A DNA stretch of 50,409 nt, counting the filler, from Dimargaris cristalligena (Eukaryota): the NCBI GenBank assembly GCA_003614675.1. It is 2 parts of 2 records of this genome, joined end to end, with 100 filler letters (N's around TTAATTAATTAA, not from the genome) between each part and the next. Parts side by side here need not be neighbours in the genome. Positions count along the whole stretch, not along the records: positions 25,265 to 50,409 come from ML002569.1; 1 more part is not named here. One strand, written 5' to 3'. Positions 8,077 to 48,789 of the stretch are shown one piece after another. A model generated the notes under the pieces. That model saw only the letters and a list, made by a program, of their open reading frames with translations. It did not search any database and was not told where the DNA came from. A program made the position numbers and the translations under genes. Within the stretch, counting starts at the first letter, position 1; each line of letters opens with the position of its first letter.

Positions 8077-9852
8077 TCACAGCTGCTGCTTTTGTAACCA
8101 GGTGTTAAGCATCGCCAAGCTAGCCGCCGGTTGGTAGGCCGGAACCTCGTGCCCCGCCTCGCTAATTTTGAGATAAGTAAAGTGGCGGAACGATCGAATA
8201 TGCCCCTGTACATGATCTTGCGGAGACCACGGTCGCCAGGTCTGGGCCTCGAAACCGGCCTGACCGGACCATTGGGCGGCCTGGGCAACGGCCAATGTTC
8301 CGAGCCAGTTGCAAATAAAATCGGCGTCGCCGGTGTACATAAGGATGGGCAGGCCCATCTCCAGAAGGGAACCCAAAGCCTGCAGCGGCTCTCGTCCCGC
8401 CCTATTGTAAATTTGCATTAATATAGGTGGTAATTAAGTAGCGGAACAGAAAGTTAGATTCGGCACCTGGGACTCTAAATGATAATACCGAATTAGCTAT
8501 TTGGTTTCGATCCCGAGTATTTGACGGCGGCGAGTGTAATAGACTATACCACGGAAGAATACACCAGACTAATAAGTGATAAACATAAAAAGAGGCACTT
8601 ACCAATCACCCCGGCGTTCAAAGTCACGGTACACCTCATCGTTACAATCGGTGTAGCTGCGGTGAACTCCCAATTCGGCCTGCACATCCGGTCGGTTAAG
8701 GTAGCCCTTGTAATCCACTGGTACCGGCCGGGCCGCCGCCCGCACGTCGTAGATGGTTGTGTGATTAGTGTACCTAAAACTAAAATGAGCACAGTACCGC
8801 TTAGCTTGTCGGCAACGGTGAAGATCGCGGGATTGGTGGCAGGATTCGAGGGCTCGGAGACAGACGGGGGTATGGGCCGCCAGGTCGGCGCATTGGGCGG
8901 GGGTAAACAAAGTAGTCGGTCCGCTTGGAGAGGGTGGCTCGGAGTGGGGTTGGAGGGGGGCTTTACAGGCCATGGTGTAATAACTAGGGATTTGGGTGAG
9001 GAAGTCCAGCAAACCGTTGCCGATGCCAATACTGGCCAACCGAATGGGGAAAATCTGGCTACGCAGGTGGTCGTGGGGTTTGACGAAGGGTAGGCGAATA
9101 TAGTCGCGGTAGGGTATGGGCTGCCGTTGATTGAGGGTCAGGATATGCTGCGCTAGAATCGGAAGGTAGTGACCCGCGTAAGATTCCCCGAATAGGTGGA
9201 GTGGGCTATCCCGGTACTGGGGGAAACGATGATAAAAGGCCTGAAGGAAACTAATTAAATCCAACGCGGCTTCAGTGGAAGTGCCGACTGGCTGGGCGTT
9301 GGGGTCGTTAAATGGCGCGGGCGTACGGTAGGAAAATCCCGTATTCGAGGGTTGGTCAATAAAGAGCAGGTTGGCTCGTTTATTCCACGCATGAGTTCGG
9401 GGCCGGACCTTTTGATGGTCTTGCGGATCTATCTGACAGGGCCCAAGTTCCTCGAACAGCCCCACCGTCCCGGCACACCCCGGTCCACCGCTCAACCATA
9501 ACACTAGCGGGTCATTCGGGGGATCCAACTCCGACTCAAATAGCCAGAAGAACGTGTGGCGGGTATCATTGGCGAAATCGAGATATCCGGCGTAATGGTG
9601 GGTGTGATTAGTGCATAAACGGGGTTCCCGGATACGGAAGCTGCCGTCTAAATGGATGCCGCTATTGAGGGGAAGGGAAGGCTGGAATTGGAGCTGCATG
9701 ACGGTGGCAAAGGACACGTGGTGGGAAATATGGGGGGCGTAAAAAACGTGGAGCCAAACGATAGCGAGGCTACCGATAATACATAGAGTGATCCGGATGG
9801 CTTTCGAACGCCATGCCTTGGGCTCGTAAAGGAGGGAATAGTTGACGGACAT
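8077..9852 (-). CDS. Serine carboxypeptidase, peptidase S10 (CPY-like); exons 9852-8603 and 8401-8077
   Basis: LWLSGGPGC, GESYAG (Ser), GDADFICNW (Asp), AGHEVP (His). Intron 8602-8402 (GTAAGT...TAG) joins the two ORFs in frame (GDW-AGREP). N-terminal hydrophobic segment present. Confidence 0.9.
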
Positions 9853-11821: not shown

Positions 11822-14470
11822 TTAATCATGTTCCAATGTTACATCCGACACAATCTGTTGCAGAATGGTGGAGTTCTTAATCAAAGATTTGAAGTAATCC
11901 CGCGATTCTTCGGCAACGAAGCGTTTCTCCAGTTTCTGGGCCCGTTCCCGTTCCTCGTGCTCAATCAAGTGCTGGAAGGACGTCTGGACGTCCCATACGA
12001 AGGGCCGGATGGCCTTGTTGGCCGCGTGGTAAAGGATGTACGATTGGTGTTCGGCGTAGCGCATGGATTCGGTTTGTTCGCGTAACCGCTGGAGCATCCG
12101 GCGGCGGATGGTACGGTCCAGGTCCGCGGTCAAGTAGACAAAGAATCCGGTTCCGACCAGCGCCGCGCCTAGCAGGGTAAGGGAACGCACACCGCGCCAG
12201 CCCAGCCAGCCGCCCAGGCGCACGGCCCGCTGCATCAAATCCCCCGCGGTGGTAAAGGGCAGACCGCCGGGAATCTTGGCCGCTAGCATCGTGAGGGTTC
12301 CCAGGGAGGCACCCGTCATGCCGAGAAGATGGGCGGCGTCGAATTCGAAGCGCCAGTTGACCAGATCCGTCAGGGATAGGGACATATCAAACAACGAGGC
12401 CGAGGGGGACCCGGGGGCCATCATGGAGGCGGCTGGAGACTGAAGGTCCGGTTGTTCCTGTTGCCGTTGTTCATTCAGAGCCACCACCAGGTCGCGGTCA
12501 CCCATGGGCAGGACCACGGAATCGGGGTTATCGGTAGCCAACTCGTCCTCGATGGTATCCCAGGGGATGTGGTAAGCCTTACGGGGCACGGGATCGGGTT
12601 GCAGGTCGTTGATTTGGAAGGTCACTTTATCCACAGCGTCTTCGGTGAAGAGTTCGCACCGGTGTAATTCCTGTTCCATCCGGGAGAGGAGGAAGGTTTT
12701 GAGATCAGCCATGTAACGGAACATATACAGGATACCGTTCCAAGGAACATGGGCCACGACGTCATCGGGATGAGGGGCGCCGGAAACGGGGGAGGTGGAA
12801 CCATCCGTGCCACCATTATGGTGGTCGTCAAAGGCCGCGGTAACGGCCGCTAAGCTCGGGGAGCGGGTCAGGGGGTGACTTTGGGGGACGGGGGCGGCCA
12901 TCAGCTGACCGCGGTCGGACAGAGCGAAGCGGCGCACCTGGTCCTGGAGGGCCTGGATGGTGGTACGCCGGATTAGCTCACAGCCAGCATCGAGCAGGCG
13001 GTTGGCCTGTTCGCTGGCGTCCTGGCGGCGGGTCAACAGGCTCTGGTAAAGGGGCACGGCGGTCTTGAGCTCATAGTTGATGCTCTCCACCCGTTTGGCG
13101 GCCATGACGAAGTTGACCCGGGAGAGCACGGTAATGTCGTCCAAGACACTCAGGAGGTAGCGCTGGGCGGGGGCCAGTTTGGAGATGAAGCGTTTCTCCA
13201 GGGTGAAGGAGCGCAGGGACTGTTCGAGGTGGGCGAACTCGGTGGTCAAACTACGCGGGATGCTACCGGTGGCGTGTTCGCCGGTGGGCGCGGTGGGGGC
13301 GTACATGTGGGTGGCACTCACAAAGTGGACCAGATCCTGGGCGTTGTTGTAGGTGTGTGGGGACAGTTCCCTAATTTGCTCCAGCACCAGGCGACGGCAA
13401 CGGTCCTTGTTGCGGATGGAGTCGAATTTGTTGACTACAATGAAAATGTAGGCCTTCTCCTTACCCGCGGTGGTCAGGAACTCCTGGCCCGACAAGGTGA
13501 AGTGGTTCTCGGAATTGACGACAAAGACGATGACGTCGATTTCCTCCTGGCGGGTGAACAGCTGGGTGGTTTTCAGGGAGTCCCGGTTCAGGCCGGGGGA
13601 GTCAATGAGGGCAATGTCGGCCACGCCGTTATGAAGCAAGCTGTTGTGACTGTCCCGACCGTCCACGGTATAGATCTTAAGGAGCTGGTAGTTGTCGGGA
13701 TTGTCCATTACCACGTCGTCCAAGTCGTCGGGGTCAATCAGAGTGTAGGAAGAGGGGTCTTTGGGGTCGTAGGCCTGGTGGTTCCAAATGGCATGGATAG
13801 CTTCCCGGCCTCCGTTCTGCTGAGCGTCAAGTACCTCGCAGAACAGCATGGTACAGGGCTGTTGGTCCCAGGGCAGCACCTCACGGCGCAGCAGGGAGTT
13901 GACCAGAGTACTCTTACCGGCGTTCAGGTCCCCGGTCACGAGGACTTTGGAGCTCCGGTCGGCCACTCGGGCGTGCAGGCGGGCCAAGTGGGCGAGCGAC
14001 TGGGCCAGCTGTTCGTCTAGCAGGTTGGAAATGGACCCCTGCTCCAGACTGAATACGAGGGAGGAACCGTCGACCGACGACGCACGGTGGGCTAGGCGTA
14101 GGTCCAATTTGAGGATCTTGAGGGTGCTGGGGCCGGAGTCGACGCCACTGTCCGAGAACTGGGCACTGTCGGCAAGGCTGGCGGTGTCAAAGGGAACCAG
14201 GGCGCGCTGGTCCTCCCCCGCCAGGGTGCCCGACGCAGACATAGGGGTGGCCGGTTGGTCATTGGGGTGCCAAAGGGACTGGGGATATTGCACCTGGAAG
14301 CGGGACCGGTTGGTCTGGCGCAGATCCTCCAGAAGGGCCTGGGTGTCCCGAATGTGGATCAGCAGCTTCTGGCTCTGTTCCTGGAACAGACGCTGGCGGT
14401 GAAGGGAATAGTCCTTTTCCGGGATCGGAAGGAGAGACGAGGTGGAGGAATTGAGATCCATGGTGGGCAA
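11822..14470 (-). CDS. FZO1: Mitofusin (fuzzy onions) transmembrane GTPase, ~880 aa, intronless
   Basis: SSKVLVTGDLNAGKST P-loop, LPWDQQPCT, IDSPGLN, QEEIDVIVFVVNSENHFTLS, VVNKFD, SKLAPAQRYL; C-terminal hydrophobic segments and coiled coil. The start may be either of two nearby codons. Confidence 0.92.
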   Translation of the reverse strand: MPTMDLNSSTSSLLPIPEKDYSLHRQRLFQEQSQKLLIHIRDTQALLEDLRQTNRSRFQVQYPQSLWHPNDQPATPMSASGTLAGEDQRALVPFDTASLADSAQFSDSGVDSGPSTLKILKLDLRLAHRASSVDGSSLVFSLEQGSISNLLDEQLAQSLAHLARLHARVADRSSKVLVTGDLNAGKSTLVNSLLRREVLPWDQQPCTMLFCEVLDAQQNGGREAIHAIWNHQAYDPKDPSSYTLIDPDDLDDVVMDNPDNYQLLKIYTVDGRDSHNSLLHNGVADIALIDSPGLNRDSLKTTQLFTRQEEIDVIVFVVNSENHFTLSGQEFLTTAGKEKAYIFIVVNKFDSIRNKDRCRRLVLEQIRELSPHTYNNAQDLVHFVSATHMYAPTAPTGEHATGSIPRSLTTEFAHLEQSLRSFTLEKRFISKLAPAQRYLLSVLDDITVLSRVNFVMAAKRVESINYELKTAVPLYQSLLTRRQDASEQANRLLDAGCELIRRTTIQALQDQVRRFALSDRGQLMAAPVPQSHPLTRSPSLAAVTAAFDDHHNGGTDGSTSPVSGAPHPDDVVAHVPWNGILYMFRYMADLKTFLLSRMEQELHRCELFTEDAVDKVTFQINDLQPDPVPRKAYHIPWDTIEDELATDNPDSVVLPMGDRDLVVALNEQRQQEQPDLQSPAASMMAPGSPSASLFDMSLSLTDLVNWRFEFDAAHLLGMTGASLGTLTMLAAKIPGGLPFTTAGDLMQRAVRLGGWLGWRGVRSLTLLGAALVGTGFFVYLTADLDRTIRRRMLQRLREQTESMRYAEHQSYILYHAANKAIRPFVWDVQTSFQHLIEHEERERAQKLEKRFVAEESRDYFKSLIKNSTILQQIVSDVTLEHD

Positions 14471-15565
14471 GGAATAGGGAATAAAGACAATAGGAAAGGA
14501 CGATGAATCACAGCTAGACGCAAGAAGAAACTATCGTAGAGGGAGAAGTGATAAATAGATAGGTAAGAGTGGGGGGAATGAAACCCGCGTGAGTGGGGGT
14601 GGTCTTGCTCAGGCACGGGGTGTGCGACTGTGGTGGTTGGTGGGCGAACGAGTAAAAGACAGGTAATAGAGGGAGCACCAAAAGGAATTTCCAAGGGCCT
14701 CAATAGGCAATGTAGGGCTTTCGAAGGGGGGAAAAGTAAAGGGAGTATAGTTTATAAAAGAAGGGACGCCCGGCCTTGGAGACTTTTAAAAGACTAACAC
14801 TACGGCAATAACCACGGAATGGTCACAATGAGGGAGGAGAGCCAAGGAGAGAGAACGAATAGAGAGAAAGGAGAGAGAGAGGTAAGGGGGGACACTGGTG
14901 ACGCACCTGCCAACACGGGGATTAACTATGGGTTGGGGTGATGGTGGTGCTGGGGCTTAGAGGAAAGTCCGCATAATTACAGGTGAGCAGTCATCGCCGA
15001 TACCCGCCCCATCTAGTTTAACAATACATAGAGGGACTTACGGAGAGAATATAAAATGGCACTGAATGATCGGCTGTTATAGTCGGTATCCAGTATGACG
15101 GGAGGGCGCTCATTGATACCTTGGAGCCAACAGGTAAATGGGTGAGGATAAAAGGCTCTAAAAAACACGCTCCTAAGGAAGAAAAGGCCATGCTGATATT
15201 TGGACATGGATAGCGGTTTTAAGCCAAAACAACCGTCTTCGGGTGCCACTGACCAGTAATACTTTAACTAATTTTTATGTATTCCGCCAACCAAATGGCG
15301 GGCAGATGGATGGCCATTGGTTTCCCCTCGACCGGCTCCGTGACTAAGGCTGCCGACCCGACCATTGCCATTGGTTGGCCGCTGCTTTTGCCAAGGAACA
15401 GTGCGGCAGTGGTGGAGACTTTATATACCCTTTTGTAGAGCACAACCTGCTTTCCTAAAAAGCCCCTCATGTGAGTGAAAATCTAATAGCAGCCAATGTA
15501 TCACTTTATCATTACAAAATATAATCGCTAGGCACATTCACAAGGGTAAGCTTGCGCAATAGTGA

Positions 15566-18500
15566 TTAACTCCGGGCAACCACCTTACCACTTTTGGTGA
15601 ATTCCCGGTAGGGCGCCCGCACCAGTCGGTTCTCGTCAAAGACGGGACGGCCCTGGACCGCCCAGAACGCCTTTTCGCCCTCCGGGTCGGGCCATTCGCG
15701 GGGGGCCCACGGGTGGTCGGCCGGAACCCGGGGATCCAGTTCGGGATTCGCCGCCAGTCGCTCCTTCTCCTCGTCAGTGAGGCATTCCAGTGGCTCGCCT
15801 ATGGTTTGCGCCACCTTGAGGAATATTTCGTCCGCCGAGAGTTCGTACGCTAGCAGTTCATCCTCCTCCGCCATTAAAATATCAATCGTCGACTGGACAC
15901 CGGGCATGTACACGGTGGCTGGTACCAAAAAGGACTGCATCGGTTCCTCCCCTTCAGCTCCGTTTCCTTCCGGGGCTATTTCGGCATGCCTATTCCCTGC
16001 GACTTCCTCCTCGGTATTGTGATCGTCGCCGTCCTCCTCCCCATCCCATTCGCCCTCTTCCTGGGCGGGATTAACGAACGGTGTCGGAAGGGTGGGATAG
16101 TAGTGTTCGCGGGGATTTACACACAGTTCGCTGGCCGGATCAGGGGTGCGGAACTGGGCTCCCATCCGCCAATCGTCATTTTTTAGGTCACTGGGGGGAC
16201 GTTCCATCAATTTCCGGATTTCCTCCGCCTCCTCCTCCGTCAGTTCGACAACCCCCTCTTCCACGGGCTCGTCATTAATAATCCCAATTTCCTCGGGCGT
16301 GAGCCGGTCCACCGGCTTGGGTTCGTAAATGGGCTTCGCATCGACCGACCCGTCCGTATAGTTGCCCTCCTGGGCCAGTCGCTTGGCTTCGTTCGTTTCG
16401 GGAACAGTAGCCAGGTACTGTGGGTGGAAACGGGCCCAGAAGCGACCCGAGAGGCGGTAGGCTCGTAGGAATTGTGGGGAGTAGTAGAAAACGCTGTAGG
16501 GCGTCGCCACCCGGTCCAGTAACGTAGCCGCATCGAAATGTACATACCGTGATTGGCCGTCGCTACCACCCGTAGTAGACTGGTCCCCGGCCTGTTTTAG
16601 AATGTCGTAGGCCCGGCGGAATTCCCAAGCTAGCCCTTCGACGGACCACGGCTCCCGGGCGCGGACCATATTAGATTCGGGCATGAATGGGTGTTCAATG
16701 GCCAGCAGCGCATATTGAGATTCAAAGGAGGCCATATCCCCGGGTACATTCGCGTTAATCAGGGGCGAGGGGGAGAGGCAGCGGGGCAGAATACCGCCTA
16801 AGCGCACCGACACCATGGCCTGCGTGTAGGGGAATTCGTGGCCGAAGAAGCGGAAAAACTCGGTCAGGAGGTGGGTCATGGTAGCGCCGGTCCCTGGGCT
16901 AGTGTTTCGTCGGTTACGGGGGAATTCCGGGTCAAGTCGGTAGGTGAAAGCCTGGGGGCGCGGGGCCAGGTTCATGTGTTTAACGGCGGGGGAGTCATCC
17001 AAGTATTCACCAGGATTCCGATCCTGCTCCCGGTAGATGTAGGTGGTCTCGTTCACCTGGAGGGTAAGTCCGCACCGGTCGGCGAACGAAGGGGGCACCC
17101 ACGCCATATAGGGCTGGGAAAAGCCATTATCGTCGATGAGTTGGGGGTACAGCCAGTTGGGCCGCCATAGCCTGCGCCGGATCGGCGCCCGGATAAAAGT
17201 GTGGGGGCGGGCCCTAACCCGCGAGTGGTACGTCATTTTTTCCTCCTCGATGATCCGCTCTTGGTTGGCCTCAAATATCGCCCGTTGGGTGTCGAATAGT
17301 TTCTGGGCCCGGCGTTCAATGTCCAGTTCGTGGGTTTGCCAGCTCGCCGTAGGCCGGGTCATAAAGTAGCCCTCCTCCTTGGCAAGTGGTACGCGAGGGA
17401 GAGTGGTTTGGCAGCTGAGGCAGTGGTGTAGGTCGTTGAGTAGCCGCTGAGCGTCCGGGTCCGTGACAATGGAGGCCAGATCGGCTTTGGATAAGAGGTT
17501 CAGGGCGGGCTGGGCATCAGTACTTTTGTCTTTCCCGGCAGCTTCTTTGGCGGGAAGTTGAATCTCGGTTTCACGCTGGTGCATGGCGGCTAGCAACTGG
17601 TTTTGTAAACTCCGCATGGCATGCTGGACCGCCCGGTGCCGGAAAGTGTCCTCGTGGATGCACGTGTCAACCCGCTGGAGAACCGGTAGGACTCCCTTAT
17701 ACTGTAAAAACCCTACCAGCATCATGGCCAATTGAATTGAACTGAATAGCTTTTTGGGCATTTCGAATATACTACCGGTATGTTCCTTCGGGAAGATGAG
17801 CTGTCGCTGGCGGGCCCAATCAAGGATAAATTGGAGCATAGGGCGGACCCGTGGGTCGAAGTCATAGTAGGCCTTGAGGAGACGAGTCTCGAAGAGGGGG
17901 AGGGGATGGTCGATGCGGATGGCAACGGGCGTGTAGGACTCGTATTTGCCGTAATTCCCCAGGATTAGGCCTTGGCCGGGCAAACTCTGGGCAGGAATGA
18001 ATCGGATTTGCTTCAACCCACCGCCCCGGAATTTGGATACGTATTTCTTCAGTGAATTCATAATATGATGGTTGGTGGAGTTGAGCCGAAGTACTTTGTC
18101 GTGAGGAATGTAGAGTAGGATATTTATGTCACTGCCGGGATGGGCTAAACCGGTAGCGAATGATCTTCCGGTGGCAGAGCATGGTGACAAACATACATAT
18201 ACATATAAGGTAAGTAATGATCCAGGTAAGCAATATGTATAGATGCCATTAAGCAGGTAGACAGCAAACTTATATTCCTATATAGTTGTTATTAAGGCCG
18301 GGGCCTTGCAATGGTATACATGGCACGGTGGCCTATATAATTATAGATCAACAAGTCAATGCGCGATCTAAACAACGCCAATCATTTAACTAAGTAGTAT
18401 CCGGATGAAGAACTTACCCTACTAATTCCACCCGATAATCCTTAGGGTTTTCGCCATTCTCAAATGACTCCCGCAGGTGAATAATGCTCGTATTAACCTT

Positions 18501-27196: not shown

Positions 27197-30100
27197 ATGG
27201 CCCCGCGTTTACCATATCCGTATGCCACTGGTATCCCATTCCAGTCCAACCGATCCCCGGTAGTTGGCACCCGCGGTATGGTGGCCTGTACGTAAGTAAA
27301 ACACTCCTTCTCGGGCGGAAACTTTGATGATTTGTCGAAATTTCGCTTCACTCTCGCCGTCCGTTTTATCCTCAACGGATACAATCGGGGCAGTGAACAC
27401 TGGCTACACAACACCACTAACAACGCACTATTTACGGCATGTATTACCTATTCTAATACTTGATACCGTGCAGTCAGCCACTTGCTAGCCAAATCGGGCT
27501 CGACATTCTTAAGCGAGGCGGAAATGCTGCTGTAAGTATCCATTGGTTACCCGGGTCTGGCCGCAGGTTGACTTCCAACCGCAATTTTTGGATACCACCT
27601 CACAAAAATCAGTATGATTTAAGGTCACTCTTAAACACTACGTAACTGGATATCTAAATGCACCTTTAATGTAAACCCCCTCACCACCCTTAGGATGCTG
27701 CCGTGGCTGTAGGTAAAGTTCGTGAATAAGTGGCACGTTGGATTTTCGGGACCGCGTGAGGGACTGCGTCCATCCATCGCACCTGGGAGACATTGCTATC
27801 GCTTGCCGAATCGGGAGTTGGCTATCCCATGAACCTGCAATTAATGATTGTCATTGTCCTACCCCTGCTGTTATGATACATATTTCTCCCACCAATCGAC
27901 CTATTTTACATGGTCCGGCTGCCGGCAATTTAAAGCCGCTGCACTCTGTGTGCTAGGTAAGTCTCCATCAGCGAACGAGCCAGTAGACGAGAAGAGACTG
28001 CATGAAACACATGTCGTCCTTTACGCTCAGCAAGCCAAAGGGAATTTTATATACATGCCATACAGCTAACCCACCATACACGTACTCTGGGGTTATTGCC
28101 AACCATTAGAGCCGTACTCCACCGGCTTGGGGGGTGACTGCTTCTGCCTGTTCTACAACGCCTCCACCCGCAAGGTCGACGGTATCAATGGATCTGGCAG
28201 GTAATTCAAACCACCCTACACCGGGTTACCGAATATTGGAGCGGCTATTTTACCAACCCTATGATTGCTACGTTTTCCACTAGACAGATATACTTTGCTT
28301 AACACGCCTTCTTCTAAGTCATATGGTACATGATTAGTTTTTTGAATGACAAACCACTATTGTTAATTTCTTATGGTGTCTGTTCACGACCATTTCAACT
28401 GTTTAGATCGGCTGCGGGAATAAGTTTGGACCACGTGAAGAAGGTGATTGGTCCGAATGCCACCGAACTTCCCCAAACCAGCGGGCTAGCCGTCAATGTG
28501 CCGGGCGCTGTGGCGGGTATGTTAGATACCCTGGAAGCCTTTGGGTCTGGTCTAATCGATCGAAAAACCGCCCTGGAGCCCGCGATTCAGTTGGCGAGAG
28601 AAGGGTAAGTTACATTTCATTATATTGGCCCACTAAAAAATAATAATAAAAGCGGGGAAGGTACAATTCAAGTTGCATTTTAATGCTCATCTCGTTCTTC
28701 TATATTGTATACCTCACCTCCTGTAATGCAACCTACTTACGCCTGGACCTTTGGGTTATATTCCCCTAAAATATCACCACCTTAAATTTATGATAACAGC
28801 TTTCCAGTTTCCCCAATTACCGCTCAAACAGTAAGTTATTCGAGTTATATTTCTCAAAGTTGGGTTCAGATGCCCATGTTACTTTTGGCTATTCTTTAAG
28901 TCAGCGTTTCCATTAATACGTATATTATACGTTCCCCGATTACTACAGTGGTCCCGTTCGGCGGAAAAACTCAAAAGAATCTCGCCCAATAGTCACGACT
29001 TCCTGATCAACGGCCATGGGCCCCGTTCCGGTCAGATTATGACCAACGTTAATATGGCCAGGTAAGTCCTATTACATTTGGTCCTTAATTTTCCAATTCA
29101 TAATGAATGGTCCATGATTCATGTGGATGAAATTCAAACCAGCTGTATAAGGTTTTACATAATACGTGTATGGGCGAATATATGTGAGAATAGCTTTTAA
29201 CCAGTAATATTGACCTCATCCAATGGATGTTTCGTTATACAGCCTGAATGAACTTCTCCCATGTTCATTTTTTCCCTGACTACTAATCTTTTTACTAATT
29301 TTAGTCACCCCAATTATGGGGTTGGGGGACATGATCATGCCATGCAGATCCTTGGAAATTATCTCCAATGAAGGAAAAGCAGGGTTTTACCAAGGTGAAA
29401 TAGCCCAAGCCATTGTTGACGCTGTCACGGCCCACGGGGGCTTATTAACGACCGAGGATCTAGCAAACCATACTTCGATTCCTGTGAAGCCGATCCGGGC
29501 CCAATACCAAGGGGTCGAAGTATTCGAATGCCCTCCAAATGGCCAAGGTAAGTTACGAATATATATATATTGGTGTAGAGCAGATGGGTTATACCTTAAC
29601 AATTGGCACAACCGTAGAGGAACATCATTCGGGTATTTGTAAAGTATTAGTTTGGTCATTATTGCTAAACTATCGCCAACGGCTAATTTGTGATGTATCG
29701 GGTCCATTCAATATTGTATCCAACATTAATCGAACTATGGGCTCTTTACTACTGCTTACCTGGATACCTCCCTCCTTTCACTACAATACCTTCTAGGCCT
29801 TACGGTTCTAATGGCCCTCAAATACCTGGAGGAGTTTGAGCGTACCGGGAAAATCCGGCCCTTTTCCGCCATGGTACCGGGCAGCGCCGAACACTACCAT
29901 CCGCTCATCGAAGCCTTGCGTCTCTCTTTTGTTGATACACGGTGGTACGTCTGTGATCCTGCCTCCCGCCTACCTCCGGCTCTACCCGCCGAGGAGACCC
30001 TTTTGGATCAGGCTTATCTCACCCGCCGGGCCCGGTTATTCGATCCGCACCGGCGAATGACGGACTTGCGCCACGGTGGACCTGGCGACGCAGATGGAGC

Positions 30101-30869
30101 CGGGGCCGGAGGGGTTGTTCCAGCATCGGATGGGCGGCCCCTACCCGGGTGTGATACCGTTTATTTCGCGGTGGTGGATGGTCGGGGTAATGCCTGTAGT
30201 TTCGTCATGTCCATTTACTCTAATTTTGGAACCTGCATCATCCCAGAGATCCGGGGGAGCTGCTCCCCCCTCACCAACTCCAACTCCAGCTCCGCTACGG
30301 TGGGATTCGCTCTCCACAACCGAGGGTGTGGCTTTAGTCTCGATCCGACTAGCCTTAATGCCCTAGGTCCCGCCAAACGTCCCTACCACACGATAATTCC
30401 GGGACTCGTCACCACCCCAACCCAAGCCCCAGTGGAGGGAAGGGGGAGGACCTTACCTTCCGCTGACGAGCCCGTGGTATCCGTCGCTGGAGACCCCGCG
30501 ACAATGGACGACGGTGAACTCCTCTACTGTTTCGGTGTCATGGGCAAATTCATGCAGCCCCAGGGGCACGTACAAACCCTGGTCCACATGCTCGGTTTTG
30601 GCCACGATCCCCAAACGGCACTGGATGGGCCCCGGTTCCGCCTCAATTTAGACGAAGACACGGTATCCATCGAAGAGACCCCTGCTACCGCGACGGTGGT
30701 TGCCGATTTGGAACGGCTCGGCCACAAAGTGGAGGTCGTACGCGGAATTGGGCGACATGATATGGGAAGGGGCCAGATTATTAGTCGAACGCACGACGAG
30801 GAATCGCAGAGATTTGTACTGACAGGTGCATCCGAGCCGCGTGCAGACGGTCAGGCGGTGGGCTGGTAG
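27197..30869 (+). CDS. Gamma-glutamyltranspeptidase family protein (YwrD-like, no signal peptide); 10 exons: 27197-27291, 27474-27531, 27694-27712, 27936-27956, 28110-28200, 28407-28604, 28800-28830, 28949-29061, 29348-29547, 29797-30869
   Basis: Splicing yields the continuous GGT signature [51 protein letters not shown], then [26 protein letters not shown] (Thr nucleophile), [22 protein letters not shown] and [11 protein letters not shown]. Confidence 0.92.
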
Positions 30870-38488: not shown

Positions 38489-41400
38489 CGTGAATTAGTA
38501 TTAAAATAAATAAATGTATATTCTAAAGAAAAAATCGGTGGGGTGTAAATAAACCACTATGATTATCAAGAAAAGCCAGTTAATAGAGGAGAGGGTGGCC
38601 AAAGGTAACCAGTGAGAAGGTGTTGCCGAGAAAGAGCGGGGTGTGTATTTCAATATAGGCAGTACTTGAGGGATTAGATGGGTGTGAATATAAGTTAGAT
38701 GGAGCAGGACACCGGACCTTTATATACTGATAACTTCTGTATTCAACCTCCCCCCCATTTCTCCTACTTTCACCATTCAATAACATTCGGGCATGGTCCT
38801 GGCAGTGTACTGAATGTCCTATTCGCCTGTTATGGAGTAGGAGAAAATATTCCCACCCTTGGTTGTTTGTGGCACTTAAATCGTGCGCACCTTTCTATAC
38901 TGTGTTATAAAAACCGCCAAGGTAGCGCACACCTGATTTCGCCCATCCCAACCGGGATACATACTATAGAACCGGAGCGGCAGGCGGACTGGAGGTCCAT
39001 TTCAGAGTGCCCGCTGCCCGTCAGAAGAAATTGTATGATATGTTTTCTTCGAAGTTTTACATTACAATAGTCTATGTCCACTTGGTTTGCCGCTGAGCTC
39101 CACTGGAAGAGATATCTATAGTTGACCCCAAGTAGCGGCAGTGTAGCCCGTCGCGATACATACATGACTAGAGTGACGTGTATGGTATAATTGGGGATTC
39201 TTTTTACCACCTAGCCCCATACTATAAAGCAGGCCAGTACTTTTTAGAACCGCCTGTTTGTCCGGCTGGTGGATGTAGTCGTTCCTACGTCTATGGGCTG
39301 GAAGCCGTCGCTGATAATGCCTCTGGATGGTTTGGGGCCTAAATAACCATGCTGAATGGCACTCCCAATTGTACATGAAGTACACCCAAACCACCGGTCG
39401 CTATTTTTAGGTGATCTCTTTTGATAACACGGTTATCCGGTATGTTGCCTTTACTACGAAACTGGTATCGCCCATTATTGGCGGAATTGAACGCACTGGT
39501 TTGACCAGCGTACACCAATTCCGGTCGCCGACTCTGACTTAATGCGCTGTCCGGAAGTTTAGTTATAACTCCCTATAATAAGACCCCTCGGCTTCTCTGT
39601 AGCCCCACCACCCAATCGAGTCGAGGGACCAGTTGTCTACTCCGGCTGCATGATTGTACGACGGAGGCGCATGTTCGAAAGACTAAAATTGGTCCTCGCG
39701 TCATAGATATATTTGCCTGCCCAAAACTAACGCTCCCAGCCACTTTATCCCATCCTATACGTATAAAGAATCGATGAGTAGAGTTATTATGGGAAGGGAG
39801 ACATCTTACCCGTCTTACAAGTTGCCCGGACACGCCTCAGGCCGCGGTATGAGACCAACAATAAAAAAGTAAAAATTACATATTATGTAATTTTAGCATC
39901 ACCTGGGCGGTTGATTAAGGAGAATGCATAGGTCGAATACCATGACTGCCTGGGGGATATGTACGAAAGCGAATAGGTGCGACAAATACACGCGGTTTTC
40001 TCCCTTCGGTTTCGCCTAAACATACATTGCTTCATAACTGGATCCTGCCAAAGCACACGGGTGGAAAAGGAAACCAACCCCCCCCATGCCACTTATATCA
40101 TGTGTGTCGTTCTTAGACGCAATTAGTGTAACCTCTACGGTTTTATTTAGCGAGCTATCCGTATCTAGCACCCCGGCCCGGCTAATACAAGGACTAAGCC
40201 GGTCGAGGAACACTTTCGGGGATATAAAATAATACAATAACAAGAACCAAAGGCTCTATAATGACACTTGCCTCTGGAAAAAGTATGTCATTGCTGGCGC
40301 CTCCCTCCCCAACGCACACGCCCCCTCAACCGGCGGCTAAACCAACCTCCGCAGCGTGGGCATGTCGGTGCAGACAGGGAACGAATTACCCTAACGCCCC
40401 AATTTGCAATAATTTACGGGAGCTATTTTAGGCAGTTTTCGGCATTAGATACATAGTATCCCTATTACTGACTCAGAGAAGGGAGATATGGGGGTTAATA
40501 GTATTAGAATATACAAGGAAACCCTTCATAATTGAGTCGGCTGCTGACCTTCGTCGATACGTAACTTGTACACTCGATAGTCGCTTCTGCGGCGAAGTCT
40601 GGACGCCCCGTCCCATGATAATGATGCAACCGATAGCCGCGATGTAACGGCGGGGTTGCTCGTATTGCACTTTTCCGTTTCCCCAACGCATAGCGCCTTT
40701 AATTGAACTATATAATTTTTAAGTAACGTCAAAGTATGAGGGGGAGGGGATGTATAGTCTAGTCTGGGTGGGGGGATTAAAAGGGGGTGCTACTTGGATT
40801 AAAGCAAAAAAAAAGTGGAAAAAATACAGGTCCACTTTTGCGACCTTAGCTTGGGGTTGGTCAACAGCAGGGTTAAAGACTTGCGGTCGAAAAATACCAG
40901 TGTCGGCTATAGTCGTTTTAGGTCAACGGCCGGCTGTGCTCATCTAGATAAGTTGCGTAACTTAGGGCGGTTACTCACGATTTCTATATTCTCCCACTCA
41001 TACAAAATCGAATAGCTTAGCTAACCCTCTTCCGTTTCTACCAATTACTTCAGACGGACCGTTAGGGTTTGAACTTGGGATGGATTTTAGTATTCAGTGG
41101 AAGGGAGTCGCGGAGTTGAGTTGGCTAGATTTTAAAGATAGCGCGTTTGTATTACAGTGGGGCTAAATTTTCAGTAGTGAACGAGTGAAGGTATAAGCAA
41201 AGTGCCATATATTTATATATAGTTTTAACAACGCATCCTCATTCTAAAAATATAAACGATTGAAGTATCGTGAACACACGAAAGGGTTAGAAAGCGGAAG
41301 CAGTGAGCGGACCCATAATCATTTCGGGCCCAGATGTAGCTCCAGTGTCGTTCCACGCAATGGCGGCTGGGGAGAGTAAAATATAGTAAGCCATTGGATG

Positions 41401-43183
41401 GTTTGGAGCGCAATGTCACCAGGGTTGGGCCCCCAGTATGGACCTTCCCAGCCTACCTTACATGTGCCACAAAACCTAAATAACTAAGGCAGGGCTGCCC
41501 CTATATCCGGAGTGTCCTCCCGTTTCAGAGAAGCCAAGATGAAACGGGCGGAAAGCCGACAAGGAGGTGCCTTTCCTTTACCCAGGGACACCACTGTTTC
41601 CACAAATACTAGACATTTATCAGACCTTTGAAACGAGGCTTTTCACTTGATAGGTATACTATCGGCGAGGAGCATCGGTCCTTGGAAGCGAGAATTGCCC
41701 CACCCCCGCTCTGGCGCCTTAGACTATTTTTGGGAGCGTGTTCTATTATCCGGAATATATGACACCACTAACTCGTTACATGGTTAATGTATAATCTTCC
41801 TTATGCCGCTACCCCATCGAACACCTGATGCAGGCTTCCATTCACGGACGAGAGAGTTCTAAAGATTACAAATTAATAATAAAACAAGGCTTTGGCCCTG
41901 GCCGGTCAATTTCCAAGAGCCTTAAGAAGCAGTCACATGCCTCGGCGGCTCCCCTCCTCCACATACACACGTTTTACGTACCTCGCAGGCGATTGGAGAG
42001 AGCAGTGGAGTCCATGGATGATAAGGTCGGCAGGATTTGGTAAATCGAGTCGATAACGAAGGAAGAATATAGAGGAAGTCTTCCGTCCCCTCTCTCCACC
42101 GTGGCTTCTTGACTTGGTCCAGTGTAATTAATCAGGCCACCAAGTGGGATAGCTGGATAAGAGGTGGTTTAGTAGAGTGTCATGATGGAGTAACTAGTAC
42201 ACGAATAAAGTTGTTTGGGATACTCTGTAAACTAACTGGTTGACCACCTCTTTGTTTTGACTGAAAGAAGACTTGGGCTAGTCCAACTAGGTCATACATC
42301 CGATATCTCGGCCACCCCCACATAGTTCTCACACCTTCCCCTCCCATACCCATCCAGAGGGTAAATATTTTCCGAGGCATTGTGGACTAATCTATTAGTT
42401 TTCATGCGCATCAGCAGAGTGGGAGGGGGTGTACTATAGGGGGCGGGAGTGAATGGATTAGTGACGGATATAAACGACTTCAATTCAATCATTCTATTAT
42501 CCGCCCCTCAATTCCGGCCGCCTCGATGATAGAGGGGATTAGTGCAATTCCTCGCATTTCGCTCACGGGACCTTCGTCAGTGACCACTCTATAGGAGTCT
42601 TATTGGTAGGTTGGACGGTGGAGGCGGTACGGAAATTCAGAGTAGGCGTTCCGAGATATGGACCGGTAGTGCACGTACCCTTCCCATGACCCTTTTCACT
42701 CAACTTACTGCCGCCTTGGATATGGTAATGGGGGTTATAGGCCAAGCAACCGAAACGGAGGGGTACGCCGTGTTTCAAAGCATTAGTGGGTGAAGCTGTA
42801 CATGGTGTAGGAGGTGCCTCCCCAACAACTACGGCAAACCAGGTGTTATTTATGAGACGCACGGTACATGCCGATGCAGGAGGAGGAGGAGTAGTGAGTG
42901 GTATTTATTGGTAATCTAGAGGAGAAGAGGGTTCGCCAGGGGCGCGATAAGATAAGCCGATGCGGATGGTTTAGTTATGATTCGGTCATAAAGCCAACAA
43001 CTGAGGCAGCAGAACCAAAGGGAGGAGAAGTCTAGGTAGACGAAGAGCATTTTTCTCCTTTGCCAGAGAGGGGGAATGGTGTGCAGGGCAGCATGGAGGA
43101 GAGGGAATGGTGAGCCTTATCCGTAAAGGTTTGCGAATCATCGTGGAATTTGACCCGCCGAAGTTGGCGAATAAGAGGGCTAA

Positions 43184-43192
43184 ATGAGTCAC
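43184..43192 (+). promoter_or_regulatory. Gcn4/CPC-1-type element (ATGAGTCAC) upstream of CPA1
   Basis: TGAGTCA core at 43185-43191, ~260 bp upstream of the (TA)n tract of an arginine biosynthetic gene. Confidence 0.55.
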
Positions 43193-43360
43193 CGTCTCCG
43201 TTGCCCAGTGTGGCCTCTGTGGATGTCTCAGGCGTTGCCGCTGGCCAATCCCGCCGGCCTAGTCGCAGACACTGTATTACTATTCAGAGTTCTGATTGGC
43301 TGCTCGCCTCCATCTTATCATAATCGCCTTTCCGTGTATATGCGTGAAAAAAAAATAGCC

Positions 43361-43441
43361 ATGCTCTCCTATCTGGTTATATGCTCTCTCTGGCTGTATG
43401 CTCTCTCTGGCTGTATGCCCTCTCCTCCATACATACATACT

Positions 43442-43469
<28 letters not shown>
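43361..43469 (+). repeat. 17-bp tandem repeat (atgctctctctggctgt x2 plus degenerate flanks) and (TA)n microsatellite in the CPA1 promoter
   Basis: Exact units at 43381-43397 and 43398-43414; TA run at ~43442-43469. Confidence 0.8.
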
Positions 43470-43473
<4 letters not shown>

Positions 43474-43632
43474 TAACCAGCAGCCGCCCCTCCAGTTCTT
43501 CACCTTACTTTACCTTTCTTCTTTCACTTCCCCCTCTTTGGTTGCCTCTAGCCTCGCTTCTACTATTTCTATAGCCTATTACTTCGCTTTTATAGCCCAC
43601 TTATTATACCCCAAGCTCTTACTTTATTCAAG

Positions 43633-43768
43633 GTAAATTCCCGTAATCATTTATAGTGGTGAATATATAGATTTACCCGTGTCGCTCGAGTTCGTGAATC
43701 TCCTTTTCGTCCGGTTGTACTAACCGGCCTGTTTCCCTCCTACCTATTATTGGTTTCCTCTTCCATAG
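43633..43768 (+). other. Predicted first 5'-UTR intron of CPA1
   Basis: AAG/GTAAAT donor, TACTAAC branch point at 43718-43724, polypyrimidine tract and TAG acceptor at 43768. Confidence 0.7.
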
Positions 43769-43823
43769 TTACGAACATCGTCACCGTGGCTTGATTGTGT
43801 AGGCGCTCCCCCAACTCGCTTTC

Positions 43824-44096
43824 ATGTACTCTCACAACCAAGAGAGGAACTCATCCGATTATATCCCTGACCAAGGTAGGTTTCGCTTCCAGGCACTCAG
43901 TACGCGCGCCCTCGACCGCTGCTAATTATTAAAACGACCAGTTATCGATTTGTTTGCTAAGCGATCCGGTTAACATCATATCTGTATAACATCCACCTTG
44001 TAACTAACTCGCCTGACACCTGTTTTACCTTGATTTCGCCCAACATCTTATTTCCTCTGTATCCCCACAGTTTGGAAATCTGCCGTCGGTTTCTAA
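43824..44096 (+). CDS. Arginine attenuator peptide (AAP) uORF, 25 aa, MYSHNQERNSSDYIPDQVWKSAVGF; exons 43824-43875 and 44071-44096
   Basis: Intron 43876-44070 (GTAGGT, branch AACTAAC ~44002-44008, CAG). The spliced peptide has D12-Y13-x-x-D16-x-x-W19, as in Neurospora arg-2 AAP (DYLSDHLW) and yeast CPA1 AAP (DYISDHIW). The stop lies 169 nt before the CPA1 ATG. Confidence 0.88.
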
Positions 44097-44265
44097 GTCC
44101 CCCGGTCTTGTCGAATCCCACCCGCCTTTCCCCTAGTATTCTTTCGCCCTTCTAAATTATCGTTATAGTTGTTTACTCTCAGCACCAAAGTCTTGACAAC
44201 CCGTTACCTCCTTCGCAGTTCTTCACCCTATCTACCCAACCAACCCCCCCTCAACAGCATTCGCC

Positions 44266-45573
44266 ATGTTTTCCTTCTCCCAGAAGTCTCTTAAGGCCAC
44301 CTCTGCCCTGCGCCGCTCTCTGGCCACCGTCTCCAACGCCACCATCAAGGCCACCTCCAACGGATCCGCCCCCGCGCGTCTGACCGAGCCCGCCTACCTG
44401 TCCCTCAAGACCGGCCAGACCTTCACCGGCCAGTCTTTCGGTGCCACCCAGGCCCCCGCCACTTCCGGCGAGACCGTCTTCACCACTTCCCTGGTTGGTT
44501 ACCCCGAGTCCATGACCGACCCTTCCTACCACGGTCAGATTCTGGTGTTCACCCAGCCCCTGGTTGGCAACTACGGCGTGCCTGCCTTCGACCGCGACCA
44601 GTTCGGTCTGCTCCGTAACTTCGAGTCGGATAAGATCCAGTGCAAAGCTATCGTGGTCAGCGACTACGCTACCCGCTACTCCCACTGGAACGCCGTCGAG
44701 TCCCTGGGTGAGTGGTGCACCCGTTCCGGCATCCCCGCCATTTCGGGTGTCGATACCCGTGCCTTGGTCCATCTTCTCCGTGATCAGGGTTCCACCCTAG
44801 GCGCTCTGACCGTGGGCGGCTCCAAGGCCCCCGCCACCGAGGAAGTTGAATTTGTGGATCCGAACACCGATAACCTGGTCGCTAAGGTGTCCGTCACCGA
44901 GCCCCAGCAGTTCAACCCCGGTGGCGACGTCAAGATCGCCGTGGTGGACTGTGGTATCAAGCAGAATATCCTGCGTTGCCTGGTGGCCCGCGGTGCCGCT
45001 GTTACCCTGCTGCCCTGGAACTACAACTTCAATGCCGTGGCTGACCACTTCGACGGCCTGTTTATTTCCAACGGCCCCGGAAGCCCCACCAAGTGCACCC
45101 CTCTGATCCAGAACGTGCGTCAGGCTTACCAGACCTTTAACAAGCCCATCTTCGGTATCTGCATGGGTAACCAGATCATGGGTATGGCCGCCGGCTTGGA
45201 TGTCTACAAGATGCGCTATGGTAACCGTGGCCACAACCAGCCCGCCGTAAACCTGACCAACGGCCAGTGTGTGATTACCTCGCAGAACCATGGATTCGCC
45301 CTGAAGGATGATGGTGCGATGCCCTCTGGATGGCAGCGCTACTTCGTGAATGCCAATGACGGCTCCAACGAGGGTATTCGCCACTCCTTCCTGCCCTTCA
45401 GCTCGGTCCAATTCCACCCCGAAGCCAAGGGCGGGCCCCAGGACACCCAGTACCTGTTCGATAGCTTCCTGACCCAGGTGCGCGAGGCCAAGATCCAGCG
45501 TACCACTCAGGAGACCGCCTTCCACAAGAATCTGGAAACCGCCACCGCCGAGCCCGTTTCTGTGGCAGCCTAA
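44266..45573 (+). CDS. CPA1: Carbamoyl-phosphate synthetase, arginine-specific, small (glutaminase) subunit, 435 aa, with mitochondrial presequence
   Basis: GETVFTTSLVGYPESMTDPSYHGQILVFTQPLVGNYG, GVDTRALV, SNGPGSP, FGICMGNQ (Cys), ITSQNHGFA, QFHPE. N-terminus is rich in Ser/Ala/Arg/Lys and has no acidic residues. Strong codon bias. Confidence 0.97.
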   Translation: MFSFSQKSLKATSALRRSLATVSNATIKATSNGSAPARLTEPAYLSLKTGQTFTGQSFGATQAPATSGETVFTTSLVGYPESMTDPSYHGQILVFTQPLVGNYGVPAFDRDQFGLLRNFESDKIQCKAIVVSDYATRYSHWNAVESLGEWCTRSGIPAISGVDTRALVHLLRDQGSTLGALTVGGSKAPATEEVEFVDPNTDNLVAKVSVTEPQQFNPGGDVKIAVVDCGIKQNILRCLVARGAAVTLLPWNYNFNAVADHFDGLFISNGPGSPTKCTPLIQNVRQAYQTFNKPIFGICMGNQIMGMAAGLDVYKMRYGNRGHNQPAVNLTNGQCVITSQNHGFALKDDGAMPSGWQRYFVNANDGSNEGIRHSFLPFSSVQFHPEAKGGPQDTQYLFDSFLTQVREAKIQRTTQETAFHKNLETATAEPVSVAA

Positions 45574-46752: not shown

Positions 46753-48789
46753 ATGGGATCATTCTTCCTTCGCCCTTCGCCCGCCAAGTCCCGCCAGGGC
46801 CGACGGCCAGGCCTGACCGGGCTTCTTCTGTTTGTAGCCCTCCTCCTCACCCCTTCTACAGTGGCCTTTTATCTCCCCGGTGTAGCCCCCAATGACTACC
46901 GCCTGGGTGACAAGGTCGAATTGGACGTTAACCATTTAACGGCCCAGGCCTCGTCCAACACCGACCACCGCCTCAAGTCCATCATCTCGTACGACTACTA
47001 TTTCCCTCCCTTCCACTTCTGCCGCCCCAGTGCCGAAGAGGGTGGGCCCCAGAGCAAAGCCGAATCCCTGGGGGCCATCCTATTCGGGGACCGTATCTTC
47101 AACTCGCCCTTTGACCTGCACTTCGGTCGCAACTCGTCCTGTCAGGCCTTGTGTCGCTCGGTGGTTCCCGCCCAGGATGCCAAGTTCATCAATAGCCGGA
47201 TCCAGGATAACTATATGCTCAATTGGCTCATCGACGGACTACCGGTGACTCAGGATGTGATGCTCTTTGTGGTGGACGATGGGTCGTCGTCGCCGTCGTC
47301 AACCGCGACGGCAGACCAGTCGGAGGATGGGGGCCAACAACACGCCCCCAAAACGGTGACCATTGCACCCTCAGTAGGCATTGCTCTGGGCCGGGTCGTC
47401 AATGAGCAGACCAGTTACTTCCACAACCATTACCAGATTCAAATCCACTACCACCCGGTAGATGACACCCGTAACCGCATCGTCGGAGTTACGGCCACCC
47501 CATCCAGCAAGCAAACCCCCGCTGACTTGCCCCTGGAGGCCACCGACCGGCTCTGCGACTCGGTCGAGCCTCAGGCCCTGAGCGAATCGGGCGACACATT
47601 GGTTACTTTCACTTATTCAGTCGAATGGATTCCGTCGGACATTACCTGGGGTACCCGTTGGGACGCCTACTTGTTTAACATGGACCCCCAGATCCACTGG
47701 TTCAGTCTCATTAACTCCATGGTGGTGGTCATTTTCCTGACTGGTATGATCGCTATGGTGCTGGTCCGGACCCTGCATAGGGACATTGCGCGTTACAACG
47801 CCATGGACGCCCAGGAGGACCTGCAGGAGGATTTCGGTTGGAAGCTGGTGCACGGGGACGTATTCCGTCCGCCCGCTTACGCTCGTCTGCTGTCGATTCT
47901 GGTTGGCAACGGCTGTCAGCTGTTCTACATGGCCGTCGTCACTCTGGTGTTCGCTTCGTTGGGCTTCCTGTCGCCCTCTAACCGGGGCTCTTTGGCCACT
48001 ATGATGGTCTGCTTCTACGTTCTGTTCAGTTGCGCGGCTGGCTACAATACCGCCCGGGTTTACAAGATGTTAAACGGGGCCCAGCTCAAACGGACCATTC
48101 TACTCGGGGCGTTTTTGGTGCCCTCGATTGTGTTCGCTATTGTTTTCTGTCTCAACTTGTTCTTGATCGGCTCCCACTCGTCCGGTGCCGTCCCCGGCGG
48201 CACCCTGGTGGCCGTGATTGGTCTCTGGTTCTTGGTGTCGGCCCCGCTGACCTTCGCCGGCGCCTACTTTGGCCTGCGCAAGCCTAAATTGGAGGCCCCG
48301 GTGCGGACCAACCAAATCCCCCGCCAGGTGCCCGACCAAAGCTTCTACCTCCGCCCGGTCCCGTCGGTCTTGATTGGCGGTATCCTACCCTTCGTGGCCA
48401 TTTTCCTGGAGCTTTACTTCATCCTCAACAGTATCTGGTTCCAAAAATTCTACTACCTATTCGGCTTCCTCTTCCTGGTCTTCATCATTTTGGTCATTAC
48501 CTGCGCGGAAGTGACCGTCCTGGTGTGCTATTTCCACTTGTGTGCTGAAGACTACCACTGGTGGTGGCGCTCGTTCTTCACGGCGGGAGCGTCGTCGTTT
48601 TACATTTTCCTCTACAGCGCCCTCTATTATTCGTCCCGCTTGAAGTTCACCTCATTTGTGAGCTCGGTGCTCTACTTTGGTTGGTCGTTCCTGATGTCCT
48701 TTTTATTCTTTATCATGACCGGTACCATTGGGTTTTACGCTTGCTTGTTCTTTGTGCGCAAAATCTACTCTTCCATCAAAATCGATTAG
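46753..48789 (+). CDS. EMP70: Transmembrane 9 superfamily (EMP70/TMN) protein, intronless
   Basis: AFYLPGVAP, ESLGAILFGDRIFNSP, QIHWFSLINS, GWKLVHGDVFRPP, PVRTNQIPRQVP, EDYHWWWRSF and C-terminal IYSSIKID. First in-frame ATG is at 46753. Confidence 0.93.
   Translation: MGSFFLRPSPAKSRQGRRPGLTGLLLFVALLLTPSTVAFYLPGVAPNDYRLGDKVELDVNHLTAQASSNTDHRLKSIISYDYYFPPFHFCRPSAEEGGPQSKAESLGAILFGDRIFNSPFDLHFGRNSSCQALCRSVVPAQDAKFINSRIQDNYMLNWLIDGLPVTQDVMLFVVDDGSSSPSSTATADQSEDGGQQHAPKTVTIAPSVGIALGRVVNEQTSYFHNHYQIQIHYHPVDDTRNRIVGVTATPSSKQTPADLPLEATDRLCDSVEPQALSESGDTLVTFTYSVEWIPSDITWGTRWDAYLFNMDPQIHWFSLINSMVVVIFLTGMIAMVLVRTLHRDIARYNAMDAQEDLQEDFGWKLVHGDVFRPPAYARLLSILVGNGCQLFYMAVVTLVFASLGFLSPSNRGSLATMMVCFYVLFSCAAGYNTARVYKMLNGAQLKRTILLGAFLVPSIVFAIVFCLNLFLIGSHSSGAVPGGTLVAVIGLWFLVSAPLTFAGAYFGLRKPKLEAPVRTNQIPRQVPDQSFYLRPVPSVLIGGILPFVAIFLELYFILNSIWFQKFYYLFGFLFLVFIILVITCAEVTVLVCYFHLCAEDYHWWWRSFFTAGASSFYIFLYSALYYSSRLKFTSFVSSVLYFGWSFLMSFLFFIMTGTIGFYACLFFVRKIYSSIKID

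Follow-up and report, generated by a model that had tools for sequence, protein, structure and literature searches.

A probable arginine attenuator peptide uORF, split by a predicted intron, in the CPA1 leader of an early-diverging fungus

In the window (the whole 50,409-nt stretch of DNA analyzed here), we found that the gene for the arginine-specific carbamoyl-phosphate synthase (CPS) small subunit, CPA1, is preceded by a small upstream open reading frame (uORF) that is predicted to form once an intron is removed and that, from the sequence of its peptide, is probably the Dimargaritales orthologue of the CPA1/arg-2 uORF that encodes the fungal arginine attenuator peptide (AAP). A preliminary description of this DNA had read the region as an intron-split AAP uORF before CPA1 and had named alignment with other CPA1 leaders as a check. 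The predicted spliced peptide did align with the AAP-type uORFs of three fungal CPA1 genes, and a CPS small subunit was encoded downstream, both in keeping with that reading. Given AAP identity, we propose by homology that the same arginine mechanism operates here, and we infer those of its steps that go beyond the anatomy of the DNA.

The CPA1 gene and its host

The main ORF (44266–45573, plus strand) was intronless, encoded 435 aa and started at an ATG in the context ttcgccATGt, with G at −3. Pfam matched it to CPSase_sm_chain (2.3e-44) and GATase (1.6e-49) and to no other domain, from which we concluded that it is a stand-alone CPS small subunit, and the UniRef label for many of its matches was “arginine-specific small chain.” These domains and matches, together with a uORF end lying 169 nt before the main start, agreed with the earlier placement of the uORF upstream of CPA1. 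The first 40 residues of CPA1 included six basic and no acidic residues, and the N-terminus suggests a mitochondrial presequence.

Among 5.8 billion proteins, the best named matches to CPA1 came from Dispira simplex (77% identical) and Dimargaris xerosporica (72%), both Dimargaritales, followed at 60–71% by Calcarisporiella, Basidiobolus, Mortierellaceae, Coemansia and Mucorales; many JGI and Logan proteins were also 60–77% identical. On the basis of the best named matches, we assigned the host to Dimargaritales (Kickxellomycota) or a close relative, which is consistent with the early-diverging fungus that the preliminary description had supposed.

Anatomy of the uORF and its leader

The uORF opened at an ATG at 43824 (the uATG) in the context gctttcATGt, and all of its parts lay on the plus strand. 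Exon 1 (43824–43875, 52 nt) consisted of 17 codons counted from the uATG plus the first base of codon 18, and its translation was MYSHNQERNSSDYIPDQ, followed by the G that begins the next codon. The predicted intron (43876–44070, 195 nt, phase 1, GTAGGT ... CTAAC ... CACAG) was followed by exon 2 (44071–44096, 26 nt), which completed Val18 and continued with W19, K20 and S-A-V-G-F (WKSAVGF) to a TAA at 44094–44096, for a predicted spliced uORF of 25 codons. Between the uORF stop and the main ATG lay a plus-strand spacer of 169 nt (44097–44265) without an ATG. When left unspliced, the frame of the uATG stayed open for 33 codons and met a stop inside the intron (43923–43925).

On the plus strand, the uATG was the only ATG in the 848-nt leader (~43416–44265); dinucleotide shuffles of this leader contained 6.6 ATGs on average, with one or none in 0.4% of 2000 shuffles, and the opposite strand contained 13. 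The depletion continued for over 400 nt on the upstream side of the uATG, and ATG depletion over 848 nt is the expected look of a long, scanned leader. With T at −3 of a lone uATG and G at −3 of the main ATG, the layout of a leader open to leaky scanning was present. The features that had been described earlier from the sequence were therefore all found in place, namely a weak-context uATG with T at −3, a phase-1 GT-AG intron joining exon 1 to VWKSAVGF and the stop, and no second ATG before the CPA1 start on a plus-strand scan of the leader.

Turning to the credibility of the intron, the donor at 43876 read aag/GTAGGT (the slash marking the junction) and the acceptor (CCCCACAG) ended at 44070. 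A CTAAC lay at 44004 with no AG between it and the acceptor, and the final 40 nt of the intron were 70% pyrimidine. Two other introns of the window are fixed by the continuity of Pfam profiles, one of 249 nt in a gamma-glutamyltranspeptidase gene (29548–29796; ccaag/GTAAGT ... CTTCTAG) and one of 201 nt in a serine carboxypeptidase gene on the minus strand (8602 down to 8402; GTAAGT ... ACAATAG), and by this standard a 195-nt intron is of normal size here. Counting against it, the uORF donor GTAGGT is one base off the GTAAGT of both Pfam-backed introns. The 800 nt before the main ATG contained 44 GT and 31 AG dinucleotides, and among the GT-AG joins in this leader that excise an intron of 40–400 nt, 43875/44071 was the only one to give the attenuator core motif defined below.

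A further candidate intron, likewise a prediction, was identified upstream of the uORF (43633–43768, plus strand), with the donor caag/GTAAAT, a TACTAAC whose CTAAC falls at 43720, and the first AG thereafter at 43767–43768. If this intron is real, the transcript would start upstream of 43633 and the uATG would lie within it. Farther upstream, at 43360–43475, we observed short tandem copies of an ~18-nt unit (ctggctgtatgctctct-like), after which came a (TA)n run (43443–43471, ~350 nt upstream of the uATG) and then a CT-rich stretch; the repeats, the (TA)n run and the CT-rich stretch may mark a promoter region. An Rfam search of 43300–44400 gave two matches, both far below gathering scores, and no known RNA family.

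AAP-type uORFs of other fungal CPA1 genes

For comparison we used three fungal loci, L001, L008 and L010, none of them from Dimargaritales or a named member of Kickxellomycota. The CPA1 of L010 was 85% identical to that of Zasmidium cellare and similar Dothideomycetes, and that of L008 was ~90% identical to proteins of Chlorociboria, Halenospora, Mollisiaceae and Phialocephala (Helotiales). The nearest proteins to L001 CPA1 were metagenomic (58–75%), followed by Mucorales, Coemansia and chytrids at 51–59%, and we take this locus to represent an early-diverging fungal lineage; its CPA1 was ~51% identical to that of the window.

In L010, exon 1 of the uORF ended with ...FTSQ and the G that opens the Asp12 codon, and was separated by a phase-1 intron of 95 nt from exon 2, (D)YISDHLWKASVN and stop, for 24 codons in total. 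The uORF of L008, also of 24 codons, had an exon 1 ending in ...FTSQ, a 225-nt phase-0 intron, a middle exon encoding DYIS plus a G, a 53-nt phase-1 intron and a last exon (D)HIWKASVN with the stop. This Helotiales-like contig (L008:1849–2201) thus had two introns, of 225 nt and 53 nt, within a 24-codon uORF, with a middle exon of 13 nt. In L001, exon 1 ended in ...AEDYLADQ and was separated by a 119-nt phase-0 intron from exon 2, IWKSAASH and stop, giving 30 codons. An extra ATG-started frame of 18 codons was seen at this locus (L001:1887–1943), its TAA lying a single base ahead of the AAP-type uATG (1945). Since all four fungal leaders, the window included, need predicted splicing to yield the peptide, intron splitting is not peculiar to the window, and the preliminary description's suggestion that it was a novel aspect was weakened: the other three fungal loci recovered were also intron-split.

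When the four peptides were aligned on Trp, the series Asp-Tyr-hydrophobic-x-Asp-x-hydrophobic-Trp-Lys was in register in every one. The predicted window peptide carried the attenuator core residues Asp12, Tyr13, Asp16, Trp19 and Lys20, and the rest of the core (hydrophobic 14, hydrophobic 18, basic 20) was also in register, with identical or conservative residues in 4/4 sequences. Asp was residue 12 and Trp residue 19 in three of the four (window, L008 and L010), L001 having five extra N-terminal residues. The positions that had been claimed for D12 and W19 were thereby confirmed, the Asp being in register with that of all three comparators and the Trp in register throughout. From Asp12 to the end, the window peptide was identical to L001 at 8 of 14 residues, six of these eight with different codons, to L008 at seven residues (five with different codons) and to L010 at seven (four with different codons), and these synonymous differences point to selection on the peptide and not on the RNA sequence.

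The preliminary description had also held the core to be divergent, citing Pro and Gln. As a novel aspect this too was weakened: Pro15 was private to the window among the four peptides (Ala in L001, Ser in L008 and L010), and Gln17 was shared with L001 (His in L008 and L010). With Pro/Gln in the window and Ala/Gln in L001, residues 15 and 17 evidently vary among early-diverging lineages. Compared with ascomycete AAPs as represented by L008 and L010, and not by the N. crassa or yeast sequences, the window peptide therefore differed by Pro15 for Ser, Gln17 for His and one extra residue between Trp and the stop (six in the window and L001, five in L008 and L010). The Trp-Lys-Ser-Ala tail was common to the window and L001, so that both showed a core D-Y-(I/L)-x-D-Q, an intron, and (V/I)-W-K-S-A. 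The likeness of L001 to the window extended to an intronless CPA1; it differed in its longer uORF (30 codons against 25) and in having A at −3 of the uATG, where the window, L008 and L010 had T. In all four leaders, position −3 of the main ATG was a purine, and the spacer running from uORF stop to main start was free of ATG.

The position of the intron was also compared. In both the window (43876, phase 1, 195 nt) and L001 (2011, phase 0, 119 nt) it adjoined the Gln codon, lying one nucleotide further on in the window. By contrast, L008 and L010 each had an intron after codon 11, and L008 had a second one that interrupted the Asp16 codon; the first introns of these two loci (1882 in L008, 923 in L010) were also one nucleotide apart. 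Within each pair, a phase-0 intron after a CAG Gln codon was matched by a phase-1 intron after a CAA Gln codon plus G. The one-nucleotide offsets in both pairs could be due to intron sliding or to repeated gain at AG/G sites. We also considered, as a rather doubtful proposition, that the intron beside the Gln17 codon is of ancient descent and belongs to an early-diverging type of AAP (Gln17, Trp-Lys-Ser-Ala tail, six residues after Trp) common to Dimargaritales and the L001 lineage. If this were true, the AAP uORF and the intron within it would predate the split of the two lineages, and splicing might constitute a second control point, with retention leaving a 33-codon frame without the Trp tail and hence an arginine-blind leader.

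Occurrence of the core motif by chance and at other loci

To assess chance occurrence, we searched all frames for the motif DY[ILVM].D.[ILVM]W[KR], both as they stood and with a single GT-AG intron removed, and demanded neither a start nor a stop codon. When the 800-nt leader was shuffled 1500 times with its dinucleotides preserved, this strict motif never appeared, and the loose motif DY..D..W appeared in three of the 1500 shuffles. Other loci were drawn from a metagenome scan built on an alignment of 20 early-diverging CPA1 proteins, in which at least 592 stretches matched and 80 were kept, three of them fungal; the scan was swamped by bacterial carA because the chosen patterns are common to bacterial carA. 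From a scan of genome contigs came another 52 loci, each titled as bacterial or archaeal, which served as negative controls, and a scan of viral contigs gave 11 pattern matches, with no relative among them. With one intron allowed, the strict motif was found in 3 of the 132 fetched carA/CPA1 loci (572,923 nt). These three were the three fungal ones, and in each the motif shared the strand of the gene and lay a short way ahead of the CPS small-subunit start. The 129 loci without the motif comprised the 52 that are bacterial or archaeal by title and 77 metagenomic loci presumed to be prokaryotic from 37–53% identity. The core motif of the uORF is not due to chance.

Relation to known attenuator peptides

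In the AAP, W19 (Neurospora numbering) is reportedly critical. Tyr13, hydrophobic 14, Asp16, hydrophobic 18, Trp19 and basic 20 reportedly define the AAP family in the work of Spevak 2010, said to be a mutational study of the AAP, and of Hood 2007, which is said to have surveyed AAP uORFs across several fungal phyla and may describe intron positions.

According to PMC7038982, the peptide of the N. crassa arg-2 uORF has 24 residues and causes ribosomes to stall at that uORF's stop in an arginine-dependent manner, Asp12 is in contact with uL4 where the tunnel is constricted, and an Asp12-to-Asn change abolishes the arginine response; the last of these backs the earlier statement that D12 is critical. 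At low arginine the uORF is passed over by leaky scanning, and at high arginine ribosomes stall at its stop, CPA1 translation goes down and nonsense-mediated decay (NMD) is triggered (PMC11550727 and PMC7969011). Beyond these species, Cryptococcus CPA1 orthologues show strong uORF occupancy, are NMD-sensitive and go up in a upf1 deletion (PMC7049704), an AAP homologue has been noted in Coprinopsis (PMC12230235), and the AAP is described as conserved “in many fungi,” citing Hood 2007 (PMC11550727). The AAP family and its wide fungal distribution are already in print.

As in the window, the AAPs of N. crassa arg-2 and S. cerevisiae CPA1 lie in the leader of an arginine-specific CPS small subunit. 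The N. crassa peptide is of the same size class (24 aa, against 25 here) with Asp at residue 12 (PMC7038982), and a single uORF stands before the main start, its own start partly skipped by leaky scanning (PMC11550727). Unlike the Neurospora and yeast uORFs, that of the window would exist only after intron removal; its host belongs to Kickxellomycota and theirs are ascomycetes. The human cytomegalovirus gp48 uORF2 and the AdoMetDC uORFs work on a like principle, in that the ribosome translating the uORF is stalled by its nascent peptide in the exit tunnel and the main ORF is blocked (PMC7038982 and PMC7969011), but they have no sequence relationship to the AAP and their effectors are none or polyamines, not arginine, making them analogues.

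In the literature searched, outside which Hood 2007 and Spevak 2010 fell, no paper paired the attenuator peptide with Zoopagomycota or with “early-diverging.” Searches on attenuator peptide with zygomycete or chytrid names gave no match carrying the AAP term, the phrase “interrupted by an intron” was absent among the arg-2/uORF literature matches listed, and three short core motifs searched as literature text gave no match.

Alternative explanations

If the uORF descends from the AAP, it may nevertheless have lost or changed its arginine stalling, in which case the spliced uORF would form a constitutive, modest scanning barrier. Such a loss could be read from a Pro15 that is unique among the four peptides compared, from Gln instead of His at position 17, and from the one extra residue after Trp relative to L008 and L010. 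On the other side, L001, a separate early-diverging lineage, has Gln17 and the six-residue tail in common with the window and likewise lacks Ser at 15 (it has Ala). Asp12, Tyr13, Asp16, Trp19 and Lys20 are moreover all kept, and the synonymous codon differences indicate selection on the peptide, so that we regard lost or altered stalling as unlikely.

We also weighed whether the uORF is made as predicted at all, since the intron could be retained or spliced otherwise, or transcription could start downstream of 43824, leaving the 33-codon frame or no uORF. Without splicing, the frame of the uATG runs on for 33 codons, which leaves room for this. The evidence on the other side comes both from the intron and from the leader: the splice signals are good, 43875/44071 is the sole GT-AG join in the leader that restores the Trp-Lys tail, and the core of L001 is likewise split by an intron adjoining the Gln codon, and ATG depletion continues for over 400 nt ahead of the uATG, with a candidate leader intron (43633–43768) also located upstream. 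We therefore consider it quite improbable that the uORF is not made. As to a chance resemblance, in which an ATG and a GT-AG pair that arose by accident in non-coding DNA happen to spell an attenuator core, the peptide is short and an allowed intron adds freedom to the search. The shuffles nonetheless gave 0 of 1500 even with one intron and any frame, the motif was missing from the other 129 loci fetched and lay upstream of 3/3 fungal CPA1 genes, and register with the fungal comparators was kept from Asp12 to Lys20, all of which makes this explanation extremely unlikely.

Proposed mechanism and its implications

Under the preferred reading, that of an AAP uORF orthologue, the leader would be transcribed from upstream of 43824, and removal of the 195-nt intron would generate the 25-codon uORF. 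Scanning ribosomes would partly bypass its weak-context AUG and initiate at CPA1. When arginine is high, the nascent peptide would act from the exit tunnel through its Asp12...Trp19 core to arrest the ribosome on or beside the stop codon of the uORF; the stalled ribosome would then stop scanning, CPA1 translation would fall, and mRNA decay would perhaps be triggered. The uORF intron itself probably has no part in sensing. In decay that depends on the exon junction complex (EJC), a downstream exon junction marks a stop as premature. With the intron ahead of the uORF stop and none in the main ORF, no exon junction would be left downstream of that stop.

The window uORF would extend the AAP, a textbook nascent-peptide sensor, to Kickxellomycota, and it leaves the understanding of the AAP mechanism unchanged. 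Work on the tolerance of the arginine-sensing tunnel interaction could draw on its natural variants at residues 15 and 17 and in the spacing from core to stop. With predicted splicing needed in 4/4 fungal leaders examined, the AAP uORF would be invisible to ORF callers in many fungi, and annotation pipelines should search spliced leaders for it.

Other features of the window

Upstream of the CPA1 leader, ~5 kb (38500–43600) contained no ORF longer than 150 codons, and Pfam matched no family in 16 ORFs tested from 38.5–43.6 kb; possible readings of this stretch are a gene rich in introns, a decayed element and intergenic DNA. Elsewhere in the window, Pfam identified on the minus strand a bestrophin (4782–6206), the serine carboxypeptidase S10 with its 201-nt intron (8080–9852), a dynamin-family GTPase (11825–14530) and a Cid1-type PAP-associated protein (15569–18277), and on the plus strand the gamma-glutamyltranspeptidase with its 249-nt intron (29280–30866) and an EMP70/TM9SF protein (46753–48789). 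Finally, we observed that many early-diverging stand-alone arginine-specific small subunits are labelled “Multifunctional pyrimidine synthesis protein CAD” at NCBI. As these proteins are 400–470 aa long and have just the two small-subunit domains, the CAD label looks like a propagated misnomer.
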